Position numbers and translations under genes: made by a program
Assembly: GCA_964652195.1 (NCBI GenBank)
Contig: CAZZBB010000012.1
Span: 36,537-100,536, forward strand
DNA: 64,000 nucleotides
Direction of reading: 5' to 3'
From: an uncultured bacterium
Lineage (GTDB): Bacteria > Poribacteria > WGA-4E > WGA-3G
In this document: piece after piece, positions 25,284 to 59,229 of the stretch
Layout of the letters: every line of letters begins with the position of its first letter
Numbering within the stretch: the stretch's first letter is position 1
The notes under the pieces: model-generated
Told to the model about the DNA's origin: nothing
The model's database searches: none
Seen by the model: only the letters and a program-made list of their open reading frames with translations

Positions 25284-25306
25284 ACACCTTTCGCACCTCT
25301 GGTGCT
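25284..25306. repeat. 23-bp repeat ACACCTTTCGCACC(T)CTGGTGCT, copy 1
   Basis: Contains the GCACC-N3-GGTGC hairpin. Copies 2 and 3 lie at 30076 and 30127, and an inverted degenerate copy at 59207. Copy 1 sits at the left edge of the GC-rich island. Confidence 0.7.
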
Positions 25307-25606
25307 GAAGATACATGAAGTAGTATTATTTTTCTAAATTGATGCCATTAGATATAACATTACTGATAGTGGTGGCAAAAAGCACACGCTTGTAATTGGT
25401 CGCAGTATATATGCAAGGGTTAATGGTAAATGGAAGTATCAGACAGGTTAGTGGTTAGAAGCTAAAAAAATTAAAAAATGGTTTGACAAGCATAGCAGCA
25501 ATTAACTACACTATATTAGGTTTTGATACAATTACGGAGCAAAATAAGCGTAGGTTCAGCAAGAACCTACGCTTATTATAGTGCTTTGCAAAACCAGAGG
25601 TTTCAC

Positions 25607-26107
25607 ATGAAATATCAATTGGTAATCCAAGACCTTAGTATACCGGTGCCAGGTGTACCTTCGTGGAGTATACCCTTATGTTCTAACCATAACGTTTACT
25701 TTGGTTGCTTAGGGCATATAGCCGAGGAGGATATAAAAACAAACCGTATAGATAGCCAATTTTATAATGGAGAAGATACAGCTATCGTCTTAGATATTGA
25801 TATAGATGCCAAAGTCGTGAGACACACCTGTTTGGCCCGTAAAAAAGAGACGACTGTGCAGTCAACAGTGGCGTTGGGTATAGGTGATGATATAGTGGAT
25901 GCGGGGGCTAAATTCACAGTAGGTCAGACGACGTATATAGCGATAACCGAGAGTGTAAAAGAGACGGTTAATACCCCTGTGGTTTCGCTAAGAGATAGTG
26001 TATATGCCGGCGTAGATTTTGATCGTCGTGCGCTATGCTCTGCCCACGCGGATTTTGATTTTGAGGGCAATGATTTTGACGAAGGTTCGGTCTGGTATCA
26101 GCCTTGA
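25607..26107 (+). CDS. Hypothetical protein
   Basis: An internal ATG at 25607 follows an AGAGG RBS; the ORF track starts at 25523, but a strong hairpin at 25544-25575 falls inside that longer ORF. No recognisable domain. It is the first gene of the GC-richer island. Confidence 0.4.
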   Translation: MKYQLVIQDLSIPVPGVPSWSIPLCSNHNVYFGCLGHIAEEDIKTNRIDSQFYNGEDTAIVLDIDIDAKVVRHTCLARKKETTVQSTVALGIGDDIVDAGAKFTVGQTTYIAITESVKETVNTPVVSLRDSVYAGVDFDRRALCSAHADFDFEGNDFDEGSVWYQP

Positions 26108-26172
26108 ATAACTTTTAGATGCGACTTGGCACCCCGGTTTATACTGTCGGGGTACCCTAAAGTAGAATTCCC

Positions 26173-27792
26173 ATGAGAATAAAACATGCTTTTACAATAC
26201 TTTTTGTTATCCTCTTTGGCATTAGTGTTTTTATCTTTTTACGAAGTTCTAATGTCCTTCCCAATGGTGATAAACTTGTCTTTCTCAATGGTGATAAACT
26301 GAAACCGAGAACTCCGGATGGTCCTGTCTCCACGTTAGAAAAAGCGGCGCGTGTGGCGTTGCATCCACTCGCAGCAGATTGGAAAACAGTTGAAGCAGCA
26401 ATGAAGCAGCGTGTTTTATCTTGGGAGGATTGGGCTCGGAAAACAGTTGAAATCGGGTGTGCGATGGACGTGCTGTATGGACATATAAACACCCCTGAAG
26501 AGGTTGCAGCGGCACGCGAAAAACAGTTAGCGATACAACTGAAATGGGCTGCCGACTGTGAATCTAGAGGGTCTATTCTTCCTAACTATCCTTTTGAGAT
26601 TCCGAAGGTTTCCCCTAAGAAGCGGTTTGACTACGAAGGACCTCAGACGAGCGAAGCACTGCTGGCAGCGTTTGATCGGAAGTGGATGGAACGTTATCCG
26701 CAATCGGTGGATTGGGACGCACATTATCCCAAAGCCGCCTGGATTGACCGAATTGTGAGTCTGGGCGGTGAAGTCCAAAGTTACGGCGATTATAGTTTTT
26801 ACCTTAAATTGCGCAGAGACCTTATCAAACACAAAGAGTCCCCGCACAAATGGCATAGTGGGGCGTTCGGTATCCCTCCAACAACGAACTTTGAGGAATA
26901 CGAAACAGGCTATATCAATAGAAAGATTTGGGAAAATGATATACGCAAAGAGGTTCGCTCTAACTACCCTGACGAGCCCAAGATTACAACCTATTTCCCC
27001 AGTGATCAACCTGATAAATACCTTCCTGTAGTAGGTAACATGACGTATGTCTACAGAAAGCCGAATAGCAGTGCAGTGAGAACCTATGGTAAATTGCTGA
27101 CTGATGAAGAGGTAAAGGACCTGAGAAATAAAGGCATAGAACCGAAGGATGTTGAAATTGTCTACATTGATGACGAATACAATGTCCTTACCGAAAAACC
27201 GAAACCCTATAACCATCAAGAGTGGTTAGAAAAAAACTCTTATGACATTGTCCCCGAAGGACTCCGTGCGCCGGATGGCACCATCGTGTCCCCTGAGCGT
27301 TATCAGGAAATAAGAGGTCAAGAGATGCCTTATGAGACGCGGCAAAGGTATGATGAATATATCGGTGATTCCCCTGCTGCTGTGGATCCTGCTGCTGCTG
27401 AGGCGGAACGCCGAGCCGTATTAACCCGCGAAGCTGCCCGTGCGGAATTTGAACGATTTAAAGAGGATATGCGCCAAATAGAAAAGTTTCAGTCTATGGC
27501 AGCAAACGAGGTATCCCGTAAGTTTGCGTTGGAGTTTCTGTCTCAATACACGCCGAAGTCCGCCACGGATAAACGGCTCCAAACGGCACTGCAAACGATG
27601 TTTCAACGTGGGTTTGATGACGGGCTGCACAGCCTGCGAAAAGACGACCCTGCCCTGGCAGCAGAGTTAGAACGGCAGCTTGCCGAAACATACAGACCAC
27701 CACAACCGCAGTTGCGACGACTAAAGACCGTGCCCCAAAAGACCGTGCCCCCTAATCCAGCGGAGACACCTCCCGCAGGGGATACGGACTAA
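26173..27792 (+). CDS. Hypothetical 539-aa protein with N-terminal membrane anchor
   Basis: Long ORF with about 50% GC and a hydrophobic N-terminus (AFTILFVILFGISVFIFL). The antisense strand also carries long ORFs, as expected for GC-rich DNA. No motif recognised. Confidence 0.5.
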   Translation: MRIKHAFTILFVILFGISVFIFLRSSNVLPNGDKLVFLNGDKLKPRTPDGPVSTLEKAARVALHPLAADWKTVEAAMKQRVLSWEDWARKTVEIGCAMDVLYGHINTPEEVAAAREKQLAIQLKWAADCESRGSILPNYPFEIPKVSPKKRFDYEGPQTSEALLAAFDRKWMERYPQSVDWDAHYPKAAWIDRIVSLGGEVQSYGDYSFYLKLRRDLIKHKESPHKWHSGAFGIPPTTNFEEYETGYINRKIWENDIRKEVRSNYPDEPKITTYFPSDQPDKYLPVVGNMTYVYRKPNSSAVRTYGKLLTDEEVKDLRNKGIEPKDVEIVYIDDEYNVLTEKPKPYNHQEWLEKNSYDIVPEGLRAPDGTIVSPERYQEIRGQEMPYETRQRYDEYIGDSPAAVDPAAAEAERRAVLTREAARAEFERFKEDMRQIEKFQSMAANEVSRKFALEFLSQYTPKSATDKRLQTALQTMFQRGFDDGLHSLRKDDPALAAELERQLAETYRPPQPQLRRLKTVPQKTVPPNPAETPPAGDTD

Positions 27793-27982
27793 ATGAAGCA
27801 TCTGATACATTGGAGCAGCCTCGTGCTGCTCCTTATCGGGGTGCGGACTACTTCTATAGCCGGACCACTACAGACGTAGCTTCTCTGTGAGTACGTCACT
27901 GGGATGAGATAGACGTGGCGGCTATCCAAAGAGACTATCAACCTTAGAGACAGAAGAACAGATATCAGAGTATCTGCTGTGG

Positions 27983-28845
27983 GTGCTTCTCTTTGTACCG
28001 ACACTTTACCTCTTTTCACCGCCCTATCGTAGTGGCGGGGGATGGACAACCCATGCCACCGCTTTTTTACTCGCCTCCCCTATCGTCATGCTACTGCTAC
28101 GCACCGGACGGTATTTTCTGACACGCACACAGCACCCCTTTGCAAAGGTTGTCACAGAAAAGATGTCCGCACGCGGTATCTCACTGGTTCTCTGTGCCAT
28201 ATGCATCCTCAGCGGAATTGCTTATATCGTGCTTGTGCGGGATACATTTTGCACAGGATACACCAATATCAAGAACACGTATCTAACGCGACGACAGAAC
28301 AAAAACCATTAGATTTTCTAAAAACATACAACGTGACACACATACTTCTCAGTGAAGAAGATGTGCTGAACATCGCTTCTCTGCACACGGATGAACAAGA
28401 CGAATACCTAACTTCTATGGTGAGACTACTGCCACGCTCTTATACCGGCAGTACACATGCCAGATTGATACCGGCACACAAAAAAACGTTGCTCAGTTTT
28501 GTGGAGATCGATTTCTATCACAAACCAACTACCGCCACAGCAAAACTAAAAAACGGTAAAACAGTAAATATCGGATACGTCAAGTCCGATAGCACAGCAG
28601 AGAAAAAAAATGAAAAATACGGGGGAATGCTACATCTATTCGATCCAAAAACACACCAAGAAGCCATATACTACCTATCCCCGCAGATTTGGAATAGTTT
28701 CGCTATCAAACTATTTTTCCGAAACCAATATAGCAAAGCGTTTGTGCCCGTATATCCACAACAAACAGGAAACGCAAAAGTCAAAATATGGGAGATACAG
28801 TATCCGACAGATATAAATGAAAATCTGAAATATCTCGAAAGGTAA
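27983..28845 (+). pseudogene. Probable frameshifted gene (hypothetical membrane protein)
   Basis: ORF 27983-28312 reads as a membrane N-terminus. ORF 28042-28845 is protein-like only after about 28300 (KPLDFLKTYNVTHILLSEEDV...). Its first 80 codons are His/Arg/Cys-rich out-of-frame noise. A +1/-1 shift near 28290-28315 would join the two halves. Confidence 0.35.
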
Positions 28846-29358
28846 ATGAAAATGATACGCATCTTGAAACAATGCTGCATATATGGCGGGATCCTTTTCT
28901 TTGGACTTGTCATTACAAATGCGACACTACAACGATTGGTAAAACCAACACCGATAAAAGTGTACGTGATACCGAAAACAGAAAAGAAAGAATATATAAA
29001 AAGAAATACAAAACTCTATGAACACCTAAAACCGAAACCGATTGACCGGCAGAAAGTATTTGATAACACAATCATTGAGAATAACATCTTCGCACCCCTC
29101 GGATACAAACCGCCCAAAAAAACACACACTTATAGACTCGTCGGAACACAGATACCAATCGGGAGAGAAACAGAGGCAATAGCGATATTACAAGAGACCA
29201 CCGGCGAGAAAAATATGCTGAGCGTTTCCATCGGAACAAAAATAGCACAGGACACAGTGGTCATGGACATAAAACCCAAGCAGATAATCATCAAAAAAGG
29301 GAATAGACGGACCCTCCTGAGGTTAGAGACATGGCTACTCCTAAATAACAGAAGGTAG
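28846..29358 (+). CDS. Hypothetical single-TM protein (weak GspC/PilP-like pattern)
   Basis: N-terminal TM (CCIYGGILFFGLVI). The C-terminal region RLVGTQIPIGRETEAIAIL...IIIKKGNRRTLL is reminiscent of GspC/PilP beta-domains. Low confidence. Confidence 0.4.
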   Translation: MKMIRILKQCCIYGGILFFGLVITNATLQRLVKPTPIKVYVIPKTEKKEYIKRNTKLYEHLKPKPIDRQKVFDNTIIENNIFAPLGYKPPKKTHTYRLVGTQIPIGRETEAIAILQETTGEKNMLSVSIGTKIAQDTVVMDIKPKQIIIKKGNRRTLLRLETWLLLNNRR

Positions 29359-29367
29359 GCACACAGC

Positions 29368-29989
29368 ATGAAAGCAAACGCAATTACGAGCACACGCATC
29401 GTTCTCACATTTATGCTCATCGCAATGTTCGGGGAAAATATATATAGATATGGCAGCCACAGCAACAATTCCACTGATCTTCATACTCGATGCCATTGAC
29501 GGATATGTCGCACGAAAGTATAAACAGGAAAACGCCTCCGGCGCCGTCTTAGACATTGCAGCAGATAGAATTATTGAAAATGTATTTTGGATTTACTTCA
29601 CCGCAAATCAGGTGATCCATTTCTGGATGCCGGTCGCAGTACTCACACGCGGATTCGTTACGGACGCAATACGCAGCTTCGCACTCAAAGACGGAAAGAT
29701 CCCTTTTGAAATGAACACAAAATATTGGACACACGCAATGACAAGCTCACGCATCTCACGCGCATGCTCAGGAACATCAAAAATGAGCGCATTCTTCGCA
29801 ATGGCAGCATTACTCGCTATCAAAAATCAGCAGATACACACCCAGCAGCTCGAGAAACTTCAGACAACAACTCTTATACTCGCAATCACCGCTGTCGCAA
29901 TCTGTATACTACGAGGGATACCTGTCATAATTGAGGGGCGACATCAAAAAAGCATTCAAACAATAATCTGGGTTATACTATTCATGTAA
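29368..29989 (+). pseudogene. CDP-alcohol phosphatidyltransferase family gene, apparently frameshifted
   Basis: From 29368 frame 1 gives MKANAITSTRIVLTFMLIAMF, a typical N-terminus, then a stop. From 29450 frame 2 carries D(x)2DG(x)2AR(x)8G(x)3D(x)3D (LDAIDGYVARK...GAVLDIAADRI). The shift falls in AAAATATATATAGATATGG. Confidence 0.5.
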
Positions 29990-30075
29990 TACCATTTCTA
30001 ATTAATTTTTGTTCCATTACCTAATGTTACTATAGTTTGGACAATTTTCGTAATTTCTTGAACAACTGTATACAT

Positions 30076-30098
30076 ACACCTTTCGCACCGCTGGTGCT
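30076..30098. repeat. 23-bp repeat ACACCTTTCGCACCGCTGGTGCT, copy 2
   Basis: Identical to copy 3 and 22 of 23 identical to copy 1. Confidence 0.7.
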
Positions 30099-30126
30099 CG
30101 GTTACTTGTGGCATTTACGTTTCTAC

Positions 30127-30149
30127 ACACCTTTCGCACCGCTGGTGCT
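30127..30149. repeat. 23-bp repeat ACACCTTTCGCACCGCTGGTGCT, copy 3
   Basis: Tandem with copy 2 at a 51-bp period. Confidence 0.7.
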
Positions 30150-30426
30150 ACGGATTTAGTCAATAGTATTCTTTTTCGGAAAGTTTCATGTTGTGGTTTA
30201 ACTCATCAATTAATAAGTTCTTATCAAACAACAGTCTGGGGAATGGTATCAAACATTAACACCCAAGCACCCGTAGTTAGGGATGTGTCTAAACATAAAG
30301 AATAGACTTACAAGTCTTTGTTTAATTCTTAAAACTGTCCAAACTATAGTATAAATTAGAACATGTCTTATAAATCATACATTTGGGATTTTTTGATCTT
30401 GTCCATGTACTCCAGATTGAAACAAC

Positions 30427-30445
30427 GGACGGGGAGACCCCGTCC
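30427..30445. repeat. GC-rich hairpin repeat GGACGGGG-AGA-CCCCGTCC followed by CTACGA
   Basis: Perfect 8-bp stem. A second copy lies at 37836-37854 (GGACGGGGAAACCCCGTCCCTACGA). Confidence 0.6.
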
Positions 30446-30601
30446 CTACGAAGAGGAATTGAATTTGTATGGTCATTTCGTATTAGTGAGATACACTGTA
30501 GTTATATCTTATTGCTGAAGTTGGATATACGTATGATGGGTTCAACGCATCCAACTGTAAGCGGAGAAACATTCGAATATCTGATTAAAACTATAGACGA
30601 T

Positions 30602-31183
30602 TTATCGATTTTCAAAGGCAGTAATGTCTGCTTCGTATTGAAGTGTCCAACCAATTTCATCGAGTCCGTTTAGTAGACAGTACTTTTCAAAGTCGCCTAT
30701 CTCAAATGTGTGGGTAGTTCCATCAGGACAAATTACCGATTGTACTTCGAGGTCAATCATCAATTGATAGCCTTCTGTGTCTTGTGCTGCTTTGCTAAGT
30801 TCTGTGATGATATCTGCTGGTAATGAGACCGGTAGGATTCCATTCTTATAGCAATTGTTGCGGAAGATGTCTGCAAAGGAGGGTGCGAGAACGGCTTTAA
30901 ATCCGTATTGCTGAAGTGCCCAGGGGGCATGTTCACGAGAACTACCGCAACCGAAGTTTATTCCAGCGATGAGAATACTGGCGTCAGCATACTTGGGTTG
31001 GTTCAATATAAAATCTGGATTTGGATCACCGTTTTCAAGATACCGCCAATCGTTAAAGAGAAATTCACCGAATCCAGTACGTTCAATTCGTTTTAGGAAT
31101 TGTTTCGGGATAATCTGATCGGTATCAACATTAATTCGGTCAAGAGGTACGACGAATCCAACATGTTCTTTAAATGCTTCCAT
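30602..31183 (-). CDS. leuD: 3-isopropylmalate dehydratase small subunit
   Basis: Shows [17 protein letters not shown] and [12 protein letters not shown]. Confidence 0.9.
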
Positions 31184-31575
31184 TATAACACCTCAATGGG
31201 TTCTTTTCGTTTCCTTTCAGTTTGATCGAAGTCTGTATCGAAACTAATGAGTTGCATCTCATATTTCGCAGCGACAGCGTATTGGTATGCATCGTCAAAG
31301 TCAAGATTGAATTTATCTGCTATGCGTTCCAACGTTTTAAGATCTTCTGGGGATAATGATAGGATGCCAACTCCGTCAACAATTATGTCCTCAAGAAACG
31401 AATTAAAAAGCGTAAAATATTTCAATCGAAACAGAATAATCCCTATAGAATGTAGGGACAGATCCGTTATGTAGATTGTGCTCAAGTCGTTAATTTGTAA
31501 GAATGATTGGACATCATCCTTTTTGTCTTGTCCCAACAAAGCTTCAAGGAAGATGTTAGTATCTGCGAGGTACAC
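31183..31575 (-). CDS. PIN-domain toxin (VapC-like)
   Basis: [12 protein letters not shown] fits the PIN N-terminal Asp motif. A GTG start at 31575 follows GGAGG and overlaps the antitoxin stop as TAGTG; the ORF track extends to 31656. Its stop overlaps the leuD start. Confidence 0.6.
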
Positions 31576-31778
31576 TATTCCCTCCAATCTGACGCTTTTT
31601 TCTGAAGTTCGAGGGCTGTAAACTGGTCTCGAAACGCTTTTAATCCACCAATCCATTCTAAGTTTGGTTTTTTCTTCCGTTTTGAACTTTTTTTTGTATG
31701 TAAGAAATCAATGAAGTGAATGACTTCTTCTTGGAGTTCCGGAGGAAGTTCCCTAATTTTTTCAATGATAGATTCCAT
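31575..31778 (-). CDS. DUF2281-like antitoxin
   Basis: 67 aa. MESIIEKIRELPPELQEEVIHFIDFLHTKK matches the DUF2281 pattern. It is translationally coupled to the downstream PIN gene. Confidence 0.55.
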   Translation of the reverse strand: MESIIEKIRELPPELQEEVIHFIDFLHTKKSSKRKKKPNLEWIGGLKAFRDQFTALELQKKASDWRE

Positions 31779-31817
31779 TGTTGTCTCCGTATTTTTCAGG
31801 GTAGAGTGGACACAGGT

Positions 31818-31845
31818 ATTTTAAGCAAGCCTTTGACTTATCCAA
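31818..31845 (-). promoter_or_regulatory. Candidate sigma70-type promoter for the toxin-antitoxin pair
   Basis: Minus strand reads TTGGAT, 16 bp, TAAAAT, with GGAG 8 nt before the antitoxin ATG. The -35 box overlaps the leuC stop. Confidence 0.3.
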
Positions 31846-33238
31846 ACGTTCGTATGTCCACAAAATGTCCTGTTACAGCAGTTGCTGCAGCCATTTGTGG
31901 ACTAACAAGGTGTGTCCTTCCACCTTTACCTTGTCTACCCTCAAAGTTTCTGTTAGATGTGCTTGCACACCTTTGTCCTGGTGTCAGCGTGTCTGGATTC
32001 ATTCCAAGGCACATACTGCATCCTGCTTCTCTCCATTCGAAACCTGCTGATTGGAAGATCTCATCAAGTCCTTCTGCTTCAGCTTGCCGTTTGACGGCTT
32101 GTGAACCAGGCACAACCATTGCACTGACGGTGTCTGCGACCTTTCTACCTTTTGCCACCTCTGCGGCTGCCCGTAAATCACTAATACGAGAGTTGGTACA
32201 ACTACCAATAAAAACTCGATCAACTGGGATGTTGGTTATCGGTGTACCCGGTTTTAAATCCATATATTCTAATGCGTGTTCAGCTGCCCGTTTTTCATCT
32301 TGTGATTCCATTTTATCAGGATCTGGTACCTGTCCAGTAACATCGGTGACCATACCAGGATTTGTACCCCAAGTAATTTGGGGTGCTATATCGGCAGCAT
32401 CAAGAATAAGGGTTTTATCATAGGTTGCCCCGTCATCTGTTGGGAGTTGTTTCCAACGTTCAACTGCAGCATCAAATGCTTCGTCTTTAGGAGCGAAACG
32501 TTTTCCGGCAAGGTATTCATAGGTCGTGTCATCTGGTGCAATCATCCCTGCGCGAGCACCTGCTTCAATTGACATATTACATACAGTCATCCGTTCTTCA
32601 ATGCTAAGGGATCGTATAGTGGAACCTGTGTATTCAACTACAGCGCCATTTCCTCCATCAATACCGATATGTCCGATAATAGAGAGGATGATGTCTTTTG
32701 CTGTTACCCCATAAGGGAGTGTGCCGTCAACCCGGATTTCAAAGGTTTCTGATTTTTGTTGTAGTAAGCATTGTGTCGCAAGGACATGTTCAATTTCACT
32801 TGTTCCGATACCGAAAGCGAGTGCTCCTAAGGCACCATGTGTTGAGGTGTGGCTATCACCGCATACAATTGTCATGCCGGGTTGAGTGATGCCGAGTTCT
32901 GGACCAATGACGTGGACGATTCCTTGATCGGGACTGTTGATGTCGTAGAGAGGAATGTCAAACTCTTTACAGTTTTGTGATAGAGTCTCCATCTGCTTGG
33001 CAGCGATCAGGTCAGTAATAGGCAGCGACCTATCCGTCGTCGGTACGTTGTGATCCATAGTTGCGAAGGTTAACTCTGGTCTGCGTACTTTTCTGTTGTT
33101 GATTCGTAACCCTTCAAATGCTTGTGGGGATGTGACCTCGTGTACAAGGTGTGTGTCAATATATAGTATGGGAACTTCGTCTTCGGATGCTCGGACGAGA
33201 TGTGTGTCCCATATTTTTTCGTACATTGTTTTTTTCAT
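31838..33238 (-). CDS. leuC: 3-isopropylmalate dehydratase large subunit
   Basis: 466 aa with an aconitase-family Fe-S ligand region ([18 protein letters not shown]). Confidence 0.9.
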
Positions 33239-33957: not shown

Positions 33958-34266
33958 CTATAAATCCATTTTTAGTTGCTTTAGCATCTCAATTACTTCA
34001 TCTGCTACAAGGATATACAAACTCTTAGGATCAAACAGATAGTTTTTGAACAACAACCAACATATCTTTGACCAAGGGAGATCTGTGCTAAAGAAGCGTT
34101 GTATCGTGCGATAGCTACCTCCTTTTGATGTCCCCCGTGAGATATTTAACATGGTGACTTGACCAGTCATCGCAAGCAGTGCAAATACAACTTGGCATAA
34201 CTGGTGGATCATAGTAGTGGATAGACATGGATTAAGTACAGTAATTAATGCTATAATTCCTGGCAT
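33958..34266 (-). pseudogene. Possible DDE transposase N-terminal fragment (IS4/IS701-like)
   Basis: 102 aa. RGTSKGGSYRTIQRFFS...YILVADEVIE resembles the N-terminal region and first catalytic D stretch of IS4/IS701-type transposases. It is truncated. Recall-based. Confidence 0.3.
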
Positions 34267-34357
34267 GGGTGTGTGTCCTTTCTAAGTTACGATAAAGTTT
34301 TATGAAGATTAATTTTTTAATTCGGTAATTTTAGAGAAATATCCAAATCAACGGTAT

Positions 34358-34375
34358 GAATGCCTTAGGGCATTC
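34358..34375. repeat. GAATGCC-TTAG-GGCATTC hairpin repeat
   Basis: Perfect 7-bp stem. Part of a larger repeated intergenic module shared with 37790-37990. Confidence 0.5.
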
Positions 34376-34532
34376 CCCGCCTACCGGGTTTGGTAAATTA
34401 GAATTGCCGAAATATTTTCTTTATCTTCATAAAACTTTAGGACAGACACCCTTTTATTCAAGTATTTTTGGCGAAGGTATTGAAACAAAACTAATATTAA
34501 ATATGATTTAGAATTTACTAACAAGGAGTCAG

Positions 34533-36365: not shown

Positions 36366-36420
36366 TCTGTATCTGGGACGAAACCACATCAAAGAGCGGA
36401 GAATTGAATATCTGACCAAG

Positions 36421-37599
36421 TCACTCAAAAGGTTGCAACATACCATCTTTTACAATCAGTGCTTTCTGTTCATACACAGCATCTCCATCAGCATTAAATG
36501 AGAATTTTCCAAAAATCGTGTCTAAGTTGCTGGTATTTGCTAAAGCGTCTCTGATTGAGATTGAGTCTATTACTTCGGCATTCTTAATTGCTTCTGTCAA
36601 AATGTGGACGGACGTATAAGATGCTGCTGCAAAGACATCTGGAATCATGCCAAAGGTTGTGTGATACTTATCAACAAATGCCTGATTCCCCGGTGTGTCA
36701 TCTGTGGGAAGCCAACCAATAAAGGTTATTACACCTTCAGCAGCAGGACCTGCAGCTGTTACATCAGTATTGGTTAATGAACTCATGATCATGGGAACGG
36801 ATATGCCGAGTGTTTGTGCTTGGATTAGGATTGGTGCTTTTTCTGGTGGCAGAGCAGAGATGAAGATAGCATCGGGTTCCAACTCATTTATCCGATTTAA
36901 TTGTGCTGTGAAATCTGTATCACCACCCTTGAAAATTTCCGTGGTTATTACCTCAATATTGATGTCACTTAATGCTTCGCGTAATGCATCGTTTCGGTCC
37001 GTAGAGAATACATCAGTTTCATCATACATTGTAGCTACGCGTTCATAAGCGAGTTTCGCGTGTGTGGTTTTAACACCATTAAGTGCTAAGACATTCGAGG
37101 CGAGAGGAATTCGAAAGAGGAAATCTCCTAATGCACTTAAACCCCTTGACCCCGACGTTGGGCTAATCGCGACAGTTTGATTCTCTTGTGCGACTGGGAA
37201 TGCCAACTTAGTAGCACTTGAGGTTGCGGGACCGAGAATAACAAATACACCGTCTTCGTGAATTAGTTTATTGAAAGCATCAACTGCAGCAGGTGGCGAA
37301 CTCATACTGTCTTCAAGGATTGGTTTGAGTATGGTGTTATTGAGTTGAGTACTGTTAATTTCATCAAATGCTAGTTCAAATCCCTGCCTCATGCGTTCAC
37401 CGGAAGCAGTTAAGTGTCCTGTTAGCGGTAAAACAACTCCGATAGTAATTTCGGTACTCTTATCATCTGCTTGTTGGGTTGGAGGTTGAGTAATTTGTGT
37501 TATTCGTTCGCATGCTGAAAAACATATCAACAAGGCTGCAATTGTCGTTAAAATAAAAATAGATTTCAAATTATTGATCCTTTTAATGTGTTTTTTCAT
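36421..37599 (-). CDS. ABC transporter substrate-binding lipoprotein, branched-chain amino acid (LivJ/K, Peripla_BP_6) family
   Basis: Lipobox ICFSAC. ITIGVVLPLTGHLTASGERMRQGFELA and GVFVILGPATSSAT match the family. No permease or ATPase genes are adjacent. Confidence 0.75.
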   Translation of the reverse strand: MKKHIKRINNLKSIFILTTIAALLICFSACERITQITQPPTQQADDKSTEITIGVVLPLTGHLTASGERMRQGFELAFDEINSTQLNNTILKPILEDSMSSPPAAVDAFNKLIHEDGVFVILGPATSSATKLAFPVAQENQTVAISPTSGSRGLSALGDFLFRIPLASNVLALNGVKTTHAKLAYERVATMYDETDVFSTDRNDALREALSDINIEVITTEIFKGGDTDFTAQLNRINELEPDAIFISALPPEKAPILIQAQTLGISVPMIMSSLTNTDVTAAGPAAEGVITFIGWLPTDDTPGNQAFVDKYHTTFGMIPDVFAAASYTSVHILTEAIKNAEVIDSISIRDALANTSNLDTIFGKFSFNADGDAVYEQKALIVKDGMLQPFE

Positions 37600-37835: not shown

Positions 37836-37854
37836 GGACGGGGAAACCCCGTCC
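37836..37854. repeat. GC-rich hairpin repeat GGACGGGG-AAA-CCCCGTCC followed by CTACGA (second copy)
   Basis: Matches 30427-30445. It is embedded in a composite intergenic repeat that also has a degenerate GAACGC..GCATTC module at 37922-37939. Confidence 0.6.
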
Positions 37855-38082
37855 CTACGATAATTTTATAGGCTGGATTACCGAAATATTTTCTTAAACT
37901 CTATAAGTCATTCCCGGGTATGAACGCTATTTAGCATTCACCGTGTTAGAAACCGCACTTACCGGGGCTATAAGAGTATTAATTTTGAAAGATAGAAGTT
38001 CATATAACTATTATCATACTCCGGTTAATGTACTGATATCAAAGTTGTCAGGTCTATAGGTTATTTACCTTAGATCATAAAT

Positions 38083-42002: not shown

Positions 42003-42163
42003 TAGCGTTAAGGTTTAATTTTGCTCAGATCATGAATGGTTGTTATCCGTGGCTTGAAATACTGCACAAACTAAACAGTTTATGCTACATTTAAGAGACC
42101 TAAATCATCAGAAATGGTATAATAAAGATTCTGGCATGAATGCCTATTCGGTAAGGTTTGTTT

Positions 42164-52009: not shown

Positions 52010-52066
52010 AGGCTTACTCCTTATACTGTCAATTAGGCAAGGTTTTATTGCAATCTATAGTTGACA

Positions 52067-52654
52067 TCAATCAAGTGCAGTAAAAACATAGTCCATATCT
52101 TTAACTCTGGCATGGCAACCCCAACATACACGGTCTCGGGCTAAGATTGTAAAATCATCATCAGGAGCACCTCTTGTGTATTCAATAAACTCCCAATCAT
52201 TATGATCAGGATCGCTACCAGCAACTTTACGCATAATTGCAATCAAACCGATGTAGTCTTTATTAGGTCTGGAAGCTTCTTTTACAACAATACTTCCATC
52301 TGGGTATGGAAATGTCTGTTCTCCATCTGGTGCAATTACTTCTCGGTCTTGATTAACATATACGTTTTTTGTACCATTATGCGGGTCACCACCAGGAACA
52401 GGGGGTATAGGTTCTGCATTCAATTTAAGCCATTTCTCATAGCCTGCAGTATAATCAGGTAGTCCCGGTAGTGCAACAATTGTTTCTTCAGGTTGTTGAA
52501 CTTCTTGGTTATTCACTCCATTGTCAGTTTCCTGGACAAGTTCCTCTATCTGGTGTTCTTCCACACAGGAAGTGAACAGTAGACCAGCAATTAGAACTGA
52601 TACAATACATTGTATTGTATTTAGGAAATGGGGAGTATGTTTTCGGTTATTCAT
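52067..52654 (-). CDS. Monoheme c-type cytochrome lipoprotein with C-terminal CXXCH (cytochrome P460 / c'-beta-like arrangement)
   Basis: Signal then lipobox LFTSC. A single CWGCH lies 15 aa from the C-terminus, as in the P460/c'-beta family (recall-based). Size is 195 aa. Confidence 0.45.
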   Translation of the reverse strand: MNNRKHTPHFLNTIQCIVSVLIAGLLFTSCVEEHQIEELVQETDNGVNNQEVQQPEETIVALPGLPDYTAGYEKWLKLNAEPIPPVPGGDPHNGTKNVYVNQDREVIAPDGEQTFPYPDGSIVVKEASRPNKDYIGLIAIMRKVAGSDPDHNDWEFIEYTRGAPDDDFTILARDRVCWGCHARVKDMDYVFTALD

Positions 52655-53004
52655 AACTTTCTCCTTAGATGAATATGATTTTAGTATATATTAAACTTGT
52701 AAGCTATACAATACATTAATTCGTTTGTCGATAGTAAAATATAGAAAAACTTAATACCTACGGGGAATAATCTCCGGTTTTATAGATAGAATTGGAACCT
52801 ATAAAACCGCAATACTTATGTGACACCTAACGACAAAAAGGACTTATCATATTACATTTATTTTTTTATACCAAAATGATTTAAATTGTTGTAATATTAT
52901 CATCTGTTATTTAGTAAAGTCAGTATACGAATTGAATCAAAGACTAAACGAAACATTAATTATCATATATGAAACGAACTAACATGTGAATAAAGGAGAA
53001 TTGG

Positions 53005-54021
53005 ATGCTTAGAAAATTGTTTAAAGGTGGTGATAAAAAAGCTGATGAACTAAAGAACACAGTACAGGATGAACCACTGGAGACAAATGGGAAAGATAAT
53101 TGGTTTAATCGTCTGAAATCCAGTTTGGCTAAAACTCGAAATAATTTAATGTCTCAACTTTCTGGATTACTTCGAGTCGGTAGGAAGATTGACGAAGATC
53201 TAATGGATGAAATTGAAGAGATTCTAATCCAAGCTGACGTAGGTGTTGATACAACTCTGAAATTGATGGATAATGTTCGGGAGACAGTAAAATCCCAAGG
53301 ATTGGGCGACTCCTCTGAGTTAGAAATAGTTATTAAAGATGAAATTCGAAATCTGCTCGGGGAAGATACTCCATTAAAACTTGAAGGAGAAGGACCTTAT
53401 ACGATTTTGGTTCTTGGCGTGAACGGTGCAGGAAAAACGACAACTATTGGGAAACTTGCCAGCAGGTTTAACACTGATGGATACCGTGTTCTCGTTGCAG
53501 CAGGAGACACTTTTCGGGCAGCTGCTGAAGATCAATTAGAAGTCTGGTGTGAACGAGCAGGGGTCGACTTGATTCGGGGTGGAGAAAATGCTGAACCTGC
53601 CTCTGTGGTTTTTGATGCTATACACGCAGCAAATCATCGTGAAGCAGATGTTTTAATAGTAGACACAGCAGGAAGATTACATACGAAAAAACCTTTGATG
53701 GATGAGTTGTCAAAAATCGGACGGGTTATGGCACAAGCCCATGCTGGAGCTCCCCATGAAGTACTACTTGTTATTGATGGTACCGTGGGACAAAATGCCT
53801 TAATGCAGGCGAAGATTTTCAATGAAGCTGTTCCTATTACGGGTGTGGCAGTCACTAAACTTGACGGTACCGCAAAGGGCGGAATAATACTTGGAGTGAA
53901 ATCCGAATTGGGAGCACCCGTAAAACTAATTGGAATTGGAGAGAAACTTGACGACCTAAGAGATTTTGTAGGTACCGAATTTGTTGAAGCTCTTTTTGTT
54001 TCTGAAGAGACATCAGAGTAA
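53005..54021 (+). CDS. ftsY: Signal recognition particle receptor
   Basis: NG domain with GVNGAGKTTTIGKLA, DTAGR and TKLDGTAKGG. Confidence 0.9.
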   Translation: MLRKLFKGGDKKADELKNTVQDEPLETNGKDNWFNRLKSSLAKTRNNLMSQLSGLLRVGRKIDEDLMDEIEEILIQADVGVDTTLKLMDNVRETVKSQGLGDSSELEIVIKDEIRNLLGEDTPLKLEGEGPYTILVLGVNGAGKTTTIGKLASRFNTDGYRVLVAAGDTFRAAAEDQLEVWCERAGVDLIRGGENAEPASVVFDAIHAANHREADVLIVDTAGRLHTKKPLMDELSKIGRVMAQAHAGAPHEVLLVIDGTVGQNALMQAKIFNEAVPITGVAVTKLDGTAKGGIILGVKSELGAPVKLIGIGEKLDDLRDFVGTEFVEALFVSEETSE

Positions 54022-54122
54022 CATACTACAGCCTAACCCTACAACATATTATATAGGGTTAGGCTGTAGTATGTAAGCAGGTAATGTAGAGGACAATCTT
54101 AATCTACCTTGTAGAACTTGTC

Positions 54123-54740
54123 TTATAGGGCATCTCCATCTTTAAGGTAGGACTGTAAGTGTTTGCGTAGATTGCGATGGGCATGGAATAGGTGAGCCTT
54201 GACAGTTCCATCCGATCTACCAACCGCAGTAGCGATATCTTTTAGTGATAGACCATCCCAGTGGCGTAAGATGAAAATCTTACGTTGTTTCGGTGGCAGC
54301 TGACGAATCGCCTTTCGGATCTGAAGTCTAAGCTCCTTATTCTCCACTGCTTTGGCAGGTGAATCTAACCGTAGGTCTGGGAAATTCGCCATCGGTAATT
54401 CCTCGGATTCATCGGAATCATATACCATTACTTCCGAACGCGATTTTTTTCGTAAAAAATCTATACACAGGTTGACAGTGATTTTATAAAGCCAACTATA
54501 GAACTGGCATTGACTCTTGAAGTTACCCAATCCTTGGTAAGCACGGATAAATGCATCTTGTGTAATATCAAGGGCATCTTCATGATTAGGAACAAAACGC
54601 AGCACTAACCGATAAGTTCGTTTTTGATAGCGAGTAAATAGCGTATCAAATACTGCGGTATCACCACTTTGAAATTGTTCTATCAGTTGAGCATCATCAT
54701 TACAACTTGGAGGAATACTTTCGGGGCTTGGGGACTGCAT
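54123..54740 (-). CDS. ECF-type RNA polymerase sigma-70 factor
   Basis: Region 2 is DITQDAFIRAYQ...FYSWLYKITVN. Region 4 has an HTH (LSLKDIATAVGRSDGTVK). Confidence 0.8.
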   Translation of the reverse strand: MQSPSPESIPPSCNDDAQLIEQFQSGDTAVFDTLFTRYQKRTYRLVLRFVPNHEDALDITQDAFIRAYQGLGNFKSQCQFYSWLYKITVNLCIDFLRKKSRSEVMVYDSDESEELPMANFPDLRLDSPAKAVENKELRLQIRKAIRQLPPKQRKIFILRHWDGLSLKDIATAVGRSDGTVKAHLFHAHRNLRKHLQSYLKDGDAL

Positions 54741-54800
54741 GTTCTCCTCTTATATGTCATTGGCTGAATAGTAATTCAGTCGTTAGTTATAGAATAGAAG

Positions 54801-55679
54801 TCACCGATCTGTCTGTTTTTGTACACAATGAAACCATTCTCTGTATCTGCGGCTATCTTTAACCATCTGTTGAAGCAGGGATAATTCCTCATCTTCTTCG
54901 GCACAAGGTGCATCAGCCAGCAATGCTAACAACTCCTCATACACGATCTTATCTTCATCTACCAATGCTGAAAGAAGACTATCAAAGTTCTCTCCCATTC
55001 CGAGTAGTGAAAATAATTGATTCGTGTGCCGTAATTCTTCTGAGGCAGCCTGGTTTAGGTACGCAGCAAGTTCATGTTCATTTCGTTTCTCTGCGATTCG
55101 AGCGAGAATTAACCGCATTCCGACGAGTTTGAGTTTGGCTTGCGCAAGTTCGTCAAGTCCCGTCTCAAATTTCTCACGTAAATGATCAGCATCACGCGGG
55201 TGCAACTGGGAATAACTCGGCCAAACGGGTTTCGCCATCACCTGTTTCAATCTCTTTAGACTTTCTATAAGGTTATCTTGTTCTTCTGGGGACAATTGAC
55301 CAAAAGTGTGTTCCCAAAAGTCTTCTGCCTGTTTTACACCTTCACTAAAAAGTTCTTGAGATTGTGGTGTTAGTTGAATGCGAGCTCTTCTTCTATCTTC
55401 ATCACACTTACGACGGACAACCCAACCTTGACGTTCTAATCTGTTGACTAAACCAGAAACTGTATTGTGAGCAAGACCGAGATGTTCACCCAATTCACTT
55501 ACATACATGCCGGATTCACGACCATACCAATGTAAGTGTTGTAAGGCGTTAAATTGGACAATTGTTAGGCGATTCGGAACTAAATCCTGAATAAACCGGG
55601 ATTTGGTTGATGCTTGGGCATGTCGCATCACACGCATAACAACATCAATTTCTTGGTTGAATTCACGGTTTTTAGACAT
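54801..55679 (-). CDS. MarR-family HTH regulator fused to a C-terminal helical, possibly ferritin-like domain
   Basis: MarR wHTH (LTIVQFNALQHL...VSELGEHLGLAHNTVSGLVNRLERQGWV). The approximately 150-aa C-terminus carries E..H pairs (NEHE, EELRH). It lies immediately upstream of the ECF sigma factor. Confidence 0.55.
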   Translation of the reverse strand: MSKNREFNQEIDVVMRVMRHAQASTKSRFIQDLVPNRLTIVQFNALQHLHWYGRESGMYVSELGEHLGLAHNTVSGLVNRLERQGWVVRRKCDEDRRRARIQLTPQSQELFSEGVKQAEDFWEHTFGQLSPEEQDNLIESLKRLKQVMAKPVWPSYSQLHPRDADHLREKFETGLDELAQAKLKLVGMRLILARIAEKRNEHELAAYLNQAASEELRHTNQLFSLLGMGENFDSLLSALVDEDKIVYEELLALLADAPCAEEDEELSLLQQMVKDSRRYREWFHCVQKQTDR

Positions 55680-55803
55680 ATTTCTAAATTGCGTCCTATA
55701 TAAGAGGTAAATCCGTCGTATACGACATAATTATAGAGGTAAATTCAGGCTATGTCAAATTAAAATGGGTTTAAATACAGAATTAGTAAGAATTTAGAAG
55801 GGT

Positions 55804-57579
55804 TTAATTGCTACCAACCAAACGTTGTGCCTTCATTTTTCGCTTAGACTTGGTCTTTGTGCGTTTATTATTTATAGGTTTTTCTACTATTTTCTCTGGT
55901 TCAATCTCTTCGGATTGAGCAATCATTTCTTGTTGTTCTGCTTCATATTCAGCATAAGTTCCATCAAAAAATCGGGTGGTGATTCCCTCTTTAGTACTCT
56001 CAAAAATCAACATTTTAGTGGCTAAACTATTTAACAAATACCGGTCATGTGAAATGATGAAAAGCGTGGCAGGATAATTCGAAAGTGCATTTTCAAGTGC
56101 TTCACGTGCGGGGATATCCAAATGGTTTGTTGGCTCATCAAGGAGAAGTACATTTGCCTTTTCCAATAGTAGCTTTGCCAGTTGAACACGACTTTGTTCC
56201 CCTCCGCTCAAGTTTCGGATCTGTTTAAACACATCATCACCAGAAAATAGAAATCTTGCTAAAAAGCCACGAACTTGTGTCTGTGTGTAGTCAGGACAAA
56301 GTTCCCAAATTTCTTCAAGGATCTCTTTGTCAAGATTGAGTCCTTCTAATTCTTGTGTATAATACCCAAATTTAAGTGTAGGTCCAACCCAGAGTTCCCC
56401 CTGTGTTGGCTGTTCTTCTCCTAACATCATACGGAAGAATGTAGTCTTTCCAACACCATTTGGACCGAGAATACCAACCACATCTCCACGAGATACCTCA
56501 AAGGTTAGATCTGTGAACAAGACTTTTTCATCAAACTGTTTGCTAACTTTATGGCAACGAAGGATATCATCACCGCCACGTGTCTCTGCAGAGAAGTTAA
56601 GGTTCAACGAAGGAGAATCAGTACTCGGTTTTTCGACTTTTTCCATTCTGTCTAATTTTTTTAGACGTCCTTGTGCTTCACGAGTTCGTTGACCGGCTAT
56701 GTTCCGTTCGATAAAATCCGATTCCTTGGTAATAAAGTCCTGTTGAATTTTGAATGTTCTTTCATCGACCAATCTCTCTACACCCTTTATTTCACAATAC
56801 TTGGAGTAATTGCCTCTGTAAATCTTGATTTGATGGTGATTCAAATCCCATACTTTACTGACAACATTATCTAAGAAATACCTATCGTGGGAAACAACAA
56901 GAACTGCCCCTTTATACTCGGTATTAATATAATTTTCCAACCATTCGATTCCATTAATATCGAGATGATTTGTCGGTTCATCCAGAAGTAGTAGGTCAGG
57001 ATCTTCAAGTAACAGTTTGCCAAGTGTGGCACGGCTTTTCTGTCCACCACTAAGAACGCTAACCGGTAGGTTGAAATCCTGTACACTAAAACCTAATCCA
57101 CCTAAAACGCGATTAATCAGATGTTCATAGTCATAACCCCCTAATCGGTCATGTTGATCTTGTAGACGAGAATACCGTTGTAAAAGTTGCGGGGTTTCCT
57201 GAGATTCCATCTGTTCTGCAAGTAGTAGCATCTGATCCTCAAGGGCAAGTCTATCTGCAAAAACCTTAAGCATTTCTTGTCGGAGTGTACAATCATGTTC
57301 TAATTCCGGTTCTTGGCTCAGGTAACCTACACGCATTCCTTTCGCTGGTATAACTTTTCCTTTGAAATCCGTGAGTATACCACACATAATCTTCAGTAAC
57401 GTTGTCTTTCCACACCCATTTCGTCCAATCAAACCTAAGCGATCCCCAGGTGCAATCGAGATTGAAATATCATCCAGTATTATATCCGGATCATACATTT
57501 TCGTTACATTTTGTAATTCTACTAATGACATTATCTTTTGTCCTATAATCCATTTATCAGTGTGGTAATGTAGCCACAA
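55804..57579 (-). CDS. ABC-F family ATPase (tandem ABC domains, Lys-rich C-terminal tail)
   Basis: Two Walker A motifs (GRNGCGKTT, GPNGVGKTT) and two LSGG signatures. A more likely start is the internal Met at 57531 (MSLVELQNV). Confidence 0.8.
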   Translation of the reverse strand: MWLHYHTDKWIIGQKIMSLVELQNVTKMYDPDIILDDISISIAPGDRLGLIGRNGCGKTTLLKIMCGILTDFKGKVIPAKGMRVGYLSQEPELEHDCTLRQEMLKVFADRLALEDQMLLLAEQMESQETPQLLQRYSRLQDQHDRLGGYDYEHLINRVLGGLGFSVQDFNLPVSVLSGGQKSRATLGKLLLEDPDLLLLDEPTNHLDINGIEWLENYINTEYKGAVLVVSHDRYFLDNVVSKVWDLNHHQIKIYRGNYSKYCEIKGVERLVDERTFKIQQDFITKESDFIERNIAGQRTREAQGRLKKLDRMEKVEKPSTDSPSLNLNFSAETRGGDDILRCHKVSKQFDEKVLFTDLTFEVSRGDVVGILGPNGVGKTTFFRMMLGEEQPTQGELWVGPTLKFGYYTQELEGLNLDKEILEEIWELCPDYTQTQVRGFLARFLFSGDDVFKQIRNLSGGEQSRVQLAKLLLEKANVLLLDEPTNHLDIPAREALENALSNYPATLFIISHDRYLLNSLATKMLIFESTKEGITTRFFDGTYAEYEAEQQEMIAQSEEIEPEKIVEKPINNKRTKTKSKRKMKAQRLVGSN

Positions 57580-57608
57580 GTATTGTTCTCAGAATTAATT
57601 ATATGTAT

Positions 57609-58526
57609 TCAAGTCTGCCAATTAGAACTGCGAAGAATCATTTCTTGATACTTATCAGCACTATTCTTATCAGGCCTGCGTATGTTAAATTGTCTAAATC
57701 GCCAGAAAGCTATTGTGAGCGCAGCATAGTGAACATAGGGATCTAAACCTCTAAATTCATCATCAGAAATCGGACGAGTAGCATTATATGCATCCAAGAA
57801 ACTATGCACAAGTTCTTCTTCCAATATATGGTCTTCAGTGTAGCAACACCCGATAATTGTCATAGCGATATCAATTAACAATGTATCCTGACACCCCTCT
57901 TCAAAATCAATAATTGTGACCAACTTTTCACCATCAAAAAGTGTATTATCTAAGAACAGATCTCCGTGTAATAGACCTGAAGGTAGAGGTTTTTCCAATT
58001 CAGGTGTCATCCATTCGAGTTCTGATTTTAACCATAATAAAAATGGGTGTGTCTTAAATTCTGTCTTTTCTATCTCCTTAATAAATGGAACTATTTGCGA
58101 TATTCCCATTGGGAAACGTGGAAGTTCCATAAGCGGTGATATACGATGTAGTTTTGCTAATGCTTCTCCGATTTGCTTCAACACACACTGAGATGGGTGA
58201 GGGGTTGTTCCATTCATAAAAGGGTAAATTATCACACGGAAATCTTGCGATAAATGGAGAAATTCACCATTTCTCTGTGGAATAGGATATGGAGTAGGGT
58301 AATCATGTTGTTGAAGGTGTGTTAACAGAGAGATTTGCAACTGAAGTTCATCTGTAGTCTTCTCATCACATATTTTCAGTAGATAAACCCCATCTGAAGT
58401 AGTGAGTTTAAAGTTGCTATTTCCATACCCACCGGACATCACTTCAAGGTCTGTTGGTGTACCTATTGAGTAATGTGAAACTATGTCGGCAACTTCAGTT
58501 GATGAAAGGGTGGTATACTGTGCCAT
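57609..58526 (-). CDS. Protein-kinase-like phosphotransferase (APH / homoserine kinase type II family)
   Basis: Shows LLHGDLFLDNTLF and IIDFEEG. The start is placed at the internal Met 58526 (MAQYTTLSSTEVADIV...), which matches ThrB2/APH N-termini and removes the overlap with the TPR gene. Confidence 0.6.
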   Translation of the reverse strand: MAQYTTLSSTEVADIVSHYSIGTPTDLEVMSGGYGNSNFKLTTSDGVYLLKICDEKTTDELQLQISLLTHLQQHDYPTPYPIPQRNGEFLHLSQDFRVIIYPFMNGTTPHPSQCVLKQIGEALAKLHRISPLMELPRFPMGISQIVPFIKEIEKTEFKTHPFLLWLKSELEWMTPELEKPLPSGLLHGDLFLDNTLFDGEKLVTIIDFEEGCQDTLLIDIAMTIIGCCYTEDHILEEELVHSFLDAYNATRPISDDEFRGLDPYVHYAALTIAFWRFRQFNIRRPDKNSADKYQEMILRSSNWQT

Positions 58527-58539
58527 GTAATAATGGATA

Positions 58540-59061
58540 CTACTGTTTCGGTTCGGTAGCGTGTATGAATTCTTTGTATTCAGGTAGGTTGCGAAGTCTA
58601 TCAAATGCAGATTCCATTTTAGCAGATTCGAGCATTGCCTTATCTAATCGAACCGCTTCACGGAGAGAAATAATTGCCTTTTCTATAGTTTTTCCACTTG
58701 TTTTCTCTGCTTGAATGGAATAACCGATGGCAAGGTTATAATATGCCTTTGCGAAATTAGGATCTAACTGTGTTGCACGTTCCCAGGCAATGATTGCGTC
58801 ATATAGTTCACCCATATTTCCATATACAGCACCCAGATTGTAGTATGGCAGTGCCCACCCCGGCTCATTTTGAATTGCCAATTTGAACTCAGAAATAGCT
58901 TGTACATGGTCACCGTTCTTCGCGGAAGCAAGTCCCCATTTATAGTGTGATTGCGCAACCTCGTTGGGTTCTTGATCATTCGTCTCGTCGGAATATGGAA
59001 TAGTATTCAGTCCACATCCAATTAATATACAAAATGCACTGAATAATGTAAGTGTTTTCAT
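58540..59061 (-). CDS. TPR-repeat lipoprotein
   Basis: Signal then lipobox LIGCG. Three TPR-like units (AISEFKLAIQNEPGWALPYYNLGAVY...). Confidence 0.65.
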   Translation of the reverse strand: MKTLTLFSAFCILIGCGLNTIPYSDETNDQEPNEVAQSHYKWGLASAKNGDHVQAISEFKLAIQNEPGWALPYYNLGAVYGNMGELYDAIIAWERATQLDPNFAKAYYNLAIGYSIQAEKTSGKTIEKAIISLREAVRLDKAMLESAKMESAFDRLRNLPEYKEFIHATEPKQ

Positions 59062-59206
59062 AGATTAATCCCCAATTTCTCTTACAATACTATACCTGAT
59101 TCTGTGTATTGAGTCAAATAAATAGGAAAATTACAGCTGTAAACATCTTATCAATTCAGGGCTTACGCAATACCTCTTAAAGTCCCCTGATATTGTCCAA
59201 ATCGGC

Positions 59207-59229
59207 AGCACCAGCAGTGCGGAATGTGG
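59207..59229. repeat. Inverted, degenerate copy (19 of 23) of the 23-bp ACACCTTTCGCACCGCTGGTGCT repeat
   Basis: AGCACCAGCAGTGCGGAATGTGG is the reverse-complement orientation. It lies in the 1.1-kb AT-rich non-coding region. Confidence 0.4.

Follow-up and report, generated by a model that had tools for sequence, protein, structure and literature searches.

A dispersed REP-like hairpin module in Poribacteria and its probable partner, a Y1 transposase of the IS200 branch

A short hairpin repeat dispersed through a 64,000-nucleotide stretch of DNA from an uncultured bacterium of the Poribacteria lineage (positions 36,537 to 100,536 of contig CAZZBB010000012.1, assembly GCA_964652195.1; hereafter the window, meaning the whole of this stretch) belongs to a family that is abundant and strongly intergenic in related Poribacteria genomes, where it also brackets, in inverted orientation, a gene for an IS200-like Y1 transposase. 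We consider it probable that the 23-bp repeats of the window are copies of a module of ~26 nt resembling the repetitive extragenic palindromes (REPs), a form of non-autonomous selfish DNA whose partner would be a small single-strand DNA transposase from the IS200 branch of the Y1 (HUH) enzymes, with the signature of TnpA-Y1 subclass 1.2. The original prediction, made from the letters of the window, had proposed a REP-like repeat or a mobile-element end, a proposal that is now supported by the abundance of the motif, its intergenic bias and the inverted bracketing of the Y1 gene in related genomes. It had also suggested three checks, a genome-wide count, a search for a transposase of the IS200-like type associated with REPs (REP-associated tyrosine transposase, RAYT) and an inspection of spacing; besides the abundance of the motif, these brought to light the bracketed Y1 gene, present in related genomes and not in the window, and a distance between same-strand neighbours that peaks at 50 nt. 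No relevant paper came out of literature searches that paired Poribacteria with REP, RAYT or IS200, and the hairpin family appears to be undescribed in the searchable literature; this would be the first account of the dominant intergenic repeat in a candidate phylum that is known mainly from sponge metagenomes.

Three near-identical copies of the repeat lie on the plus strand at 25284-25306, 30076-30098 and 30127-30149, where they read ACACCTTTCGCACC(T/G)CTGGTGCT, and a fourth, diverged copy lies on the minus strand at 59207-59229, its reverse complement, CCACATTCCGCACTGCTGGTGCT, matching the 23-bp motif at 19 of 23 positions. The four dispersed copies that had been claimed, one of them inverted, are thus confirmed, and none of them is expected by chance: a motif search with up to 3 mismatches gave 3 matches in the window against 0.00 expected (100 shuffles), and the pattern GCACC-N3-GGTGC gave 3 against 0.01 expected. 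The further claim that every copy contains this stem holds for the three plus-strand copies and fails for the one at 59 kb, whose stem (GCACT...GGTGC) is made of four Watson-Crick pairs and one T-G pair. All the window copies fall outside open reading frames (ORFs) of at least 100 aa, in keeping with the intergenic location first proposed.

A covariance model (R1), built solely from other genomes and then run on the window, recovered the three plus-strand copies at 40-44 bits (E < 1e-12). Copy 1 (25279-25308), which reads gtgATACACCTTTC-GCACC-TCT-GGTGC-T, reached 44.2 bits (E 8.7e-15), and copies 2 (30071-30100) and 3 (30122-30151), the first and second units of a tandem doublet, reached 40.1 bits (E 3.1e-13) and 41.4 bits (E 9.8e-14), respectively. 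Copy 4, a CACATTCC variant on the minus strand (59205-59234), scored 18.2 bits (E 6.5e-5). Its arm corresponds to the CACATTCCGCACC variant, which recurs in other genomes where doublets have it as their second unit, and despite its imperfect stem it is a true member of the family; its flanks (..TTTTCTATC before and GCCGATTTGGACAATA after) agree with the consensus GCCGATTTGGTCAATAGTA of a larger composite repeat (the B-type, described below), and from this resemblance it seems to be a fragment of the second unit in a B-type repeat. A close relative of the window (locus L120, ~95% identical) carries copies at the corresponding places, among them the orthologue of copy 1 at 5109-5138. The whole window gave no Rfam match above gathering thresholds, and the region 24.9-30.7 kb, searched at E values up to 10, gave only matches at chance level. 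An attachment site at a tRNA or tmRNA gene was ruled out, as the window contains neither.

The positional information of the family delimits the module rather sharply. In first or solitary copies it begins at ATAC, just 5′ of ACCTTTC, and in last or solitary copies it stops at the T that follows the stem, which leaves a minimal module of ~26 nt, nearly the 23-bp repeat first noticed. This module is composed of a single-stranded head and arm, (C)TATACACCTTTC, followed by a G+C-rich stem of 5 bp, which closes a loop of 3 nt, and, finally, a T; the head is CTAYA, and the arm between head and stem has 8-9 nt. The stem occurs most often as GCACC/GGTGC (196 cases), GCCCC/GGGGC (78) or GCCTC/GAGGC (37), GTCCC, GCATC and ACCCC forms being rarer, and its positions covary. 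When the search was anchored on the arm only, 94 of the 147 cases with a stem other than GCACC had a perfect 5-bp stem, and when four stem positions were fixed, the third pair was of the Watson-Crick type in 261/317 Poribacterial and 369/395 metagenomic matches, with all four pair types in use.

When each GTDB species was represented by one genome and scanned with the motif CACCTTTCGCACCNNNGGTGCT, which has 19 specified bases, at least 111 matching stretches were found. Among the matches listed, 103 are labelled Candidatus Poribacteria, two come from one unlabelled metagenome-assembled genome with the same architecture, and six are singletons in other taxa, close to the ~4 estimated by chance for this collection. 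A single genome contributes at least 23 separate 8-kb stretches, and viral contigs contain none. The exact form of the module is, in consequence, near-exclusive to Poribacteria, and the window fits this range, its coding regions showing ~70% DNA identity to Poribacteria loci and its repeats being ~90% identical to those of the isolate MSPOR6. As a side note to these matches, three loci of Candidatus Zambryskibacteria / Yonathbacteria, from the candidate phyla radiation (L009, L019 and L083), share extended flanks (ggtaCACCTTTCGCACC...GGTGCTcaagg), and probably represent a conserved gene or RNA with no relation to the repeat family.

Over the 111 loci listed we counted 329 modules with a perfect stem, and only 13 of them (4%) fall inside ORFs of at least 150 aa, even though such ORFs make up 72% of the DNA of these loci (p ~1e-153). 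A strictly intergenic location would also suit hairpins that mainly serve the host, whether as terminators, mRNA-stabilising stem-loops or binding sites for host proteins, with their spread as a by-product, and enterobacterial REPs do have secondary roles of this kind (PMC2817692, PMC3733652). We find such a primary function very improbable for the Poribacterial modules. The stem is not followed by a run of T, and no module of the window was flagged as terminator-like; convergent and co-directional gaps are not favoured, as they contain modules in 18-22% of cases against 28% of the divergent ones, and the orientation of the modules is unbiased relative to the flanking genes. The lack of a T tail and of any such bias by gap type or orientation leaves a terminator role without support, and a host function would not explain the arrays of up to six identical units seen at one locus (L082).

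The modules occur in three arrangements: some stand alone, others form tandem arrays whose period is 50 nt, and others again face each other in convergent pairs 40-49 nt apart. The distance between same-strand neighbours is 50 nt in 84 instances, 51 nt in 18 and 49 nt in 10, and the longest arrays contain at least 5 or 6 units. The spacer that precedes internal copies is conserved across loci, across genomes and within arrays (consensus TGGTTTCTTGTGG..AC.TTTTCTATA). The 28-bp spacer noticed between the two tandem copies of the window (30099-30126, plus strand, CGGTTACTTGTGGCATTTACGTTTCTAC) is therefore real, and it is not unique, since it corresponds to the conserved spacer of the 50-51-nt tandem unit. 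Two palindromic 23-bp repeats separated by 28 bp may recall a degenerate mini-array of the CRISPR type, with the solitary copies as orphan repeats, a reading to which we give practically no credence: it is refuted by the conserved spacers, the ORFs adjoining the copies match no Cas family in Pfam, and the same repeats are also found in inverted pairs and flanking a transposase gene. The pair is a tandem duplication unit.

The transposase gene came out of a clustering of all the ORFs of the motif-selected loci. Most clusters near modules were ordinary paralogous families (Peptidase_C25, GFO_IDH_MocA, PhyH, ABC), and the only informative one was a small cluster matching Pfam Y1_Tnp (IS200-like, E 2.8e-28), with a product of 157 aa that is an IS200-related Y1 (HUH) transposase. 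In every Poribacterial locus examined, nine in all (L094, L087/L113, L106, L042 with two genes, L017, L114, L115-118 and L119), this gene sits between inverted modules, with arrays of several modules on each side: those upstream are antisense, the last one ending ~20 nt before the ATG, and those downstream are sense, the first one beginning at the stop codon. Loci retrieved by the identity of the Y1 protein alone repeat the same bracketing pattern. A metagenome search with the Y1 protein alignment yielded 80 further loci at 56-88% identity, 77 of them with enough flank to look for a GCNCC-N3-5-GGNGC hairpin within 100 nt of the gene. Such a hairpin was present upstream in 71 of the 77, downstream in 65 and on both sides in 62, the latter situation occurring in 0.2% of shuffles, and the modal distances were 14 nt on the start side and 15 nt on the stop side. 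Many of these metagenomic loci carry the module TTCTACAAAGATGyC-GC.CC-loop-GG.GC-T in tandem with a period of 45-50 nt, and its CTAYA head and 13-nt arm length are the same as in the Poribacterial CTATACACCTTTC.

The alignment of the Y1 proteins shows the motifs PDH[ILV]HIL, EWQ and YI.NQE.HH and a C-terminal tail of 34 aa; there is conservation of HIH and YI.NQ, the catalytic motifs, and to judge from them the gene looks catalytically intact. In two loci the Y1 genes come in pairs ~2 kb apart (L042 2151-2642 and 4440-4955, ~73% identical; L113 1-207 and 2001-2474). Each of the L042 genes has its own module arrays, and the members of a pair may be paralogues that differ in their cognate stem variant.

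What defines REP/RAYT systems is that palindromic repeats, dispersed in many copies, also flank a Y1 gene in inverted orientation (Nunvar 2010, PMC2817692), a unit that has also been called a REPtron (Quentin 2018, PMC6006769). Given that the gene described here lies between inverted and widely dispersed palindromes, the system would work like REP/RAYT. It shares with REPs, with the bacterial interspersed mosaic elements (BIMEs) that they build and with their RAYTs (PMC2817692, PMC6006769) the short G+C-rich palindromes in high copy, extragenic and clustered, the preservation of the stem by compensatory changes, and a Y1 HUH gene placed between inverted repeats with the downstream repeat at or just after the stop codon. 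There are also differences. The dominant module cluster is a direct tandem with a 50-nt period, whereas the repeats of BIMEs alternate in orientation; in the reverse complement of the module, (T/G)TAG falls 3′ of the hairpin instead of at the 5′ foot; the enzyme has YI.NQ..HH as its Y motif, in contrast to the Y...NP of RAYTs; and the host phylum is Poribacteria. The doublet as a recurrent unit, and inverted pairs such as that of the window at 25171-25308, able to fold into a long hairpin, recall the REPINs (Bertels and Rainey 2011, PMC3116915), but the commonest doublet is here direct (head to tail, 50 nt) and not inverted.

A match for the enzyme is found in TnpA-Y1 subclass 1.2, whose signature comprises a HuH motif DH[IV]H, a W motif WQ, a Y motif Y...Q..HH, a length of ~148 aa and a C-terminal tail of ~30 aa (PMC6006769). 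Quentin et al. 2018 described this subclass as close to IS200, without the properties of an insertion sequence (IS), and listed it as 'REP: no'; its members were reported to be generally without terminal hairpins, and mostly cyanobacterial or from Bacteroidetes (PMC6006769). The Poribacterial protein, with DHIH, WQ, YI[KN]NQE.HH, a similar length and a C-terminal tail, carries the subclass 1.2 signature, an assignment drawn from motifs and not from a tree of the reference set, and its genes likewise show low to moderate copy number and diverged paralogues. Unlike the published members, however, these Y1 genes are consistently flanked by hairpin modules.

The proximity to IS200 also allows a different reading, in which the modules would be the ends and the miniature derivatives of a still autonomous IS200-type insertion sequence, similar to palindrome-associated or miniature inverted-repeat transposable elements (PATEs or MITEs), rather than the partners of a domesticated RAYT-like enzyme. 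We judge this unlikely, although several observations point towards it: the protein passes the IS200/IS605 model NF033573 with 76.7 bits against a cut-off of 55, its closest solved structures in the PDB are TnpA proteins of the ISDra2 and IS608 types, with no RAYT structure among the matches, and a genome can hold more than one Y1 gene, as with the pairs of L042 and L113 and the three proteins encoded on a single contig of 3.57 Mb. As in IS200/IS605 elements and PATEs, small hairpins adjoin the gene, and the module resembles the left-end cleavage site of IS608 in having a conserved tetra-/pentanucleotide some distance 5′ of the hairpin. Yet the end hairpins of IS200/IS605 elements are co-oriented on one strand, whereas the flanking modules are inverted here and form arrays on each side; the Y1 paralogues seen are 72-90% identical, unlike the near-identical copies of a recent IS; the motif-selected loci listed contain 329 modules and 6 Y1 genes; and no tnpB was found adjacent to the Y1 genes in the loci examined. 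On account of the inverted flanking modules, the divergence of the paralogues and the lack of an adjacent tnpB, the Y1 unit is unlikely to be a classical IS200.

The preferred reading, that of REP-like modules served by an enzyme with the subclass 1.2 signature, has to be weighed against a number of less favourable results. With 35 bits, the Y1 protein stays below the cut-off of 80 in the RAYT model (NCBIfam NF047646), and some genomes hold more than one Y1 gene, as mentioned above. REPs carry GT[AG]G directly at the foot of a stem longer than 5 bp, whereas in the modules the head is CTAYA and lies 8-9 nt from the stem. On these two features, the RAYT model and the head, the system falls outside the REP/RAYT family proper. 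Stems of 5 bp are also thermodynamically weak: the fold of the doublet has a z of about -1.6, and over the doublet and the single modules the z values ranged from -0.35 to -2.6, which is not decisive. Moreover, no clean pair of filled and empty sites was found for a single module, and no Y1 transposase gene or homologue is present in the 64-kb window. The window copies are consequently orphans, and most likely passive relics and substrates for recombination. All in all, the system is best filed as a variant of REP/RAYT, with an enzyme from a subclass previously thought to be partnerless.

More tentatively, the hairpin class might be the missing DNA partner of TnpA-Y1 subclass 1.2, in which case it would constitute a second REP/RAYT-like system, arisen in the IS200 branch independently of the GTAG-REP/RAYT pair, with a geometry of its own (a stem of 5 bp with CTAYA 8-9 nt away, direct arrays of 50 nt) and present in several lineages beyond Poribacteria. 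If this link is true, REP-like systems have evolved more than once from enzymes of the IS200 type. A Y1 subclass that was listed without a REP partner (PMC6006769) can now be linked to a concrete and easily synthesised candidate DNA substrate, the module oligonucleotide CTATACACCTTTCGCACCGCTGGTGCT, which makes the activity of subclass 1.2 directly testable.

By analogy with IS608 TnpA and with the TnpA-REP of E. coli, the Y1 enzyme would bind the hairpin on single-stranded DNA, and would cut and rejoin it at a site within the conserved head or arm. Cuts at equivalent sites of adjacent units could then release a 50-nt circle of one unit, able to re-insert beside another head. A one-unit circle model of this kind was proposed by Nunvar et al. 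for the growth of BIMEs (PMC2817692), and excision and re-insertion of such circles would account for a period that is fixed, a spacer that is conserved and indels of exactly one unit. In this regard, the 50-nt arrays of Poribacteria offer an easy way to read out whether REP clusters grow by single-strand cut-and-paste, as that model has it.

The modules of the window are embedded in larger composite repeats of two types. The A-type (25150-25351, plus strand) consists of a reverse module, a nested hairpin, a forward module (copy 1) and a tail ending in ..CTAAATTGATGCCATTAG. Its reverse module is decayed (25171-25197, minus strand, ACTATACACATTCCATGCCACTGG..; R1 10.5 bits, E 0.06), aligns with the intact reverse modules of L062 and L120, and forms with copy 1 the inverted pair mentioned above. 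This composite is 82-85% identical to sequences of L062 and of a second site in L120 (10284-10534), with unrelated flanks, and it is a short relative of a ~330-bp element of one other genome, which is bounded by terminal inverted repeats (TIRs) CACCATAGGCGTCAATTTA and contains four modules, two in each orientation, with the nested hairpin splitting some of them. In the window, the nested hairpin has a 9-bp stem (GCAGCATGC-N7-GCATGCTGC, 25231-25255), lies between the members of the inverted pair and was flagged as terminator-like on the minus strand. The same hairpin, AGCATGCGCGTGTGGCATGCTGCATGA, recurs in L012, L022, L027, L088 and other loci, where it takes the place of the arm GAAA in some reverse modules of the composite and not in others; it has the look of yet another very small insert, mobile or gene-converted, inside the module.

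The B-type (30028-30351, plus strand) carries the tandem doublet and has 28-nt TIRs at 30028-30055 and 30324-30351, which are 86% complementary. It also contains a probable decayed reverse module at 30266-30291 (minus strand, AGCACCCGTAGTTAGGGATGTGTCTA), below the R1 threshold and recognised by alignment only, which matches AGCACCAGCAGTGCGGCAGGTATCTA in L111 and similar sequences in L069 and L103. B-type homologues with different flanks occur in L060, L069, L102, L103 and L111; the L111 copy has a 9-bp flanking duplication (TATTGTGTT), and no clear duplication is seen in the window, L069 or L102. With its TIRs and its homologues in other flanks this carrier resembles a MITE, a likeness that concerns the carrier only, as the 23-bp module also occurs outside such carriers and in a second, unrelated carrier type. 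Repeats of this sort break assemblies, and a 5-kb Logan contig does terminate inside composite B. In L103, the sequence adjoining the B-type carrier (3405-3842) is the same as that of a long inverted repeat of the window, described below.

The comparison with L120 shows recent turnover. This relative retains the A-type carrier at the orthologous site, and its leuD-proximal spacer, without the B-type carrier, has a second copy of the A-type instead. The two A-type paralogues differ by exactly one 49-nt unit, the extra one being in the second-site copy (10284-10534). An ORF of 127 aa with HTH_23/HTH_28/HTH_29 matches lies in ~400 bp of L120 that are absent from the window (9819-10202, minus strand), and we take it to be the N-terminal part of an IS630-type transposase. 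Being located at the very spacer where the window has the TIR carrier, it marks this spacer as a hot spot for mobile DNA.

One could also regard copy 1 and copies 2/3 as att-like direct repeats around an acquired island of 4.8 kb (25.3-30.1 kb), a possibility that seems to us hardly credible. The segment does have a G+C content of 0.43-0.48 against ~0.35 outside, its ORFs are without a Pfam family save for one CDP-alcohol phosphatidyltransferase, and the copies are direct repeats with an extended similarity of 51 nt. However, each copy is part of a different self-contained composite repeat that is also found elsewhere, no integrase or recombinase was detected by Pfam in the segment, and the segment is also present in L120, so no empty site is known.

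Within this segment, the block of higher G+C (0.43-0.48 against ~0.35) spans 25523-29400; it includes ORFs of 194, 539, 267 and 170 aa without a Pfam family, its order is conserved in L120, and it is bracketed by hairpin modules. The window also holds a second and canonical-looking class of REP, GTAGGGACGGGGT(C/T)TCCCCGTCC, at 30427-30449 and 37836-37858 (both on the minus strand), in which the stem has 8 bp and the GTAG head adjoins its foot directly. Other Poribacteria loci contain similar hairpins, and the copy at 30427-30449, 157 nt downstream of leuD, was flagged as terminator-like.

Other repeats of the window lie further from the modules. An inverted repeat of 500-650 bp has its arms 37 kb apart, at 21934-22458 and 59258-59912, with 190 nt at 84% identity plus shorter blocks; the ORF of 119 aa in it (59775-60134) belongs to no Pfam family, and the copy at 22 kb has broken ORFs only. 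A shorter inverted repeat of 49 nt (88%) joins 21746-21794 and 42077-42125, 20 kb apart, and both of its arms match positions 772-862 of L008. Another dispersed hairpin repeat, GGTGAATGCTAAACAGCATTCATACC, is present in both orientations at 22316-22341, 34333-34378 and 37917-37942. Finally, an ORF of 102 aa at 33958-34266 (minus strand) matches Pfam DDE_5 over no more than its first 66 positions, and is a truncated remnant of a transposase.

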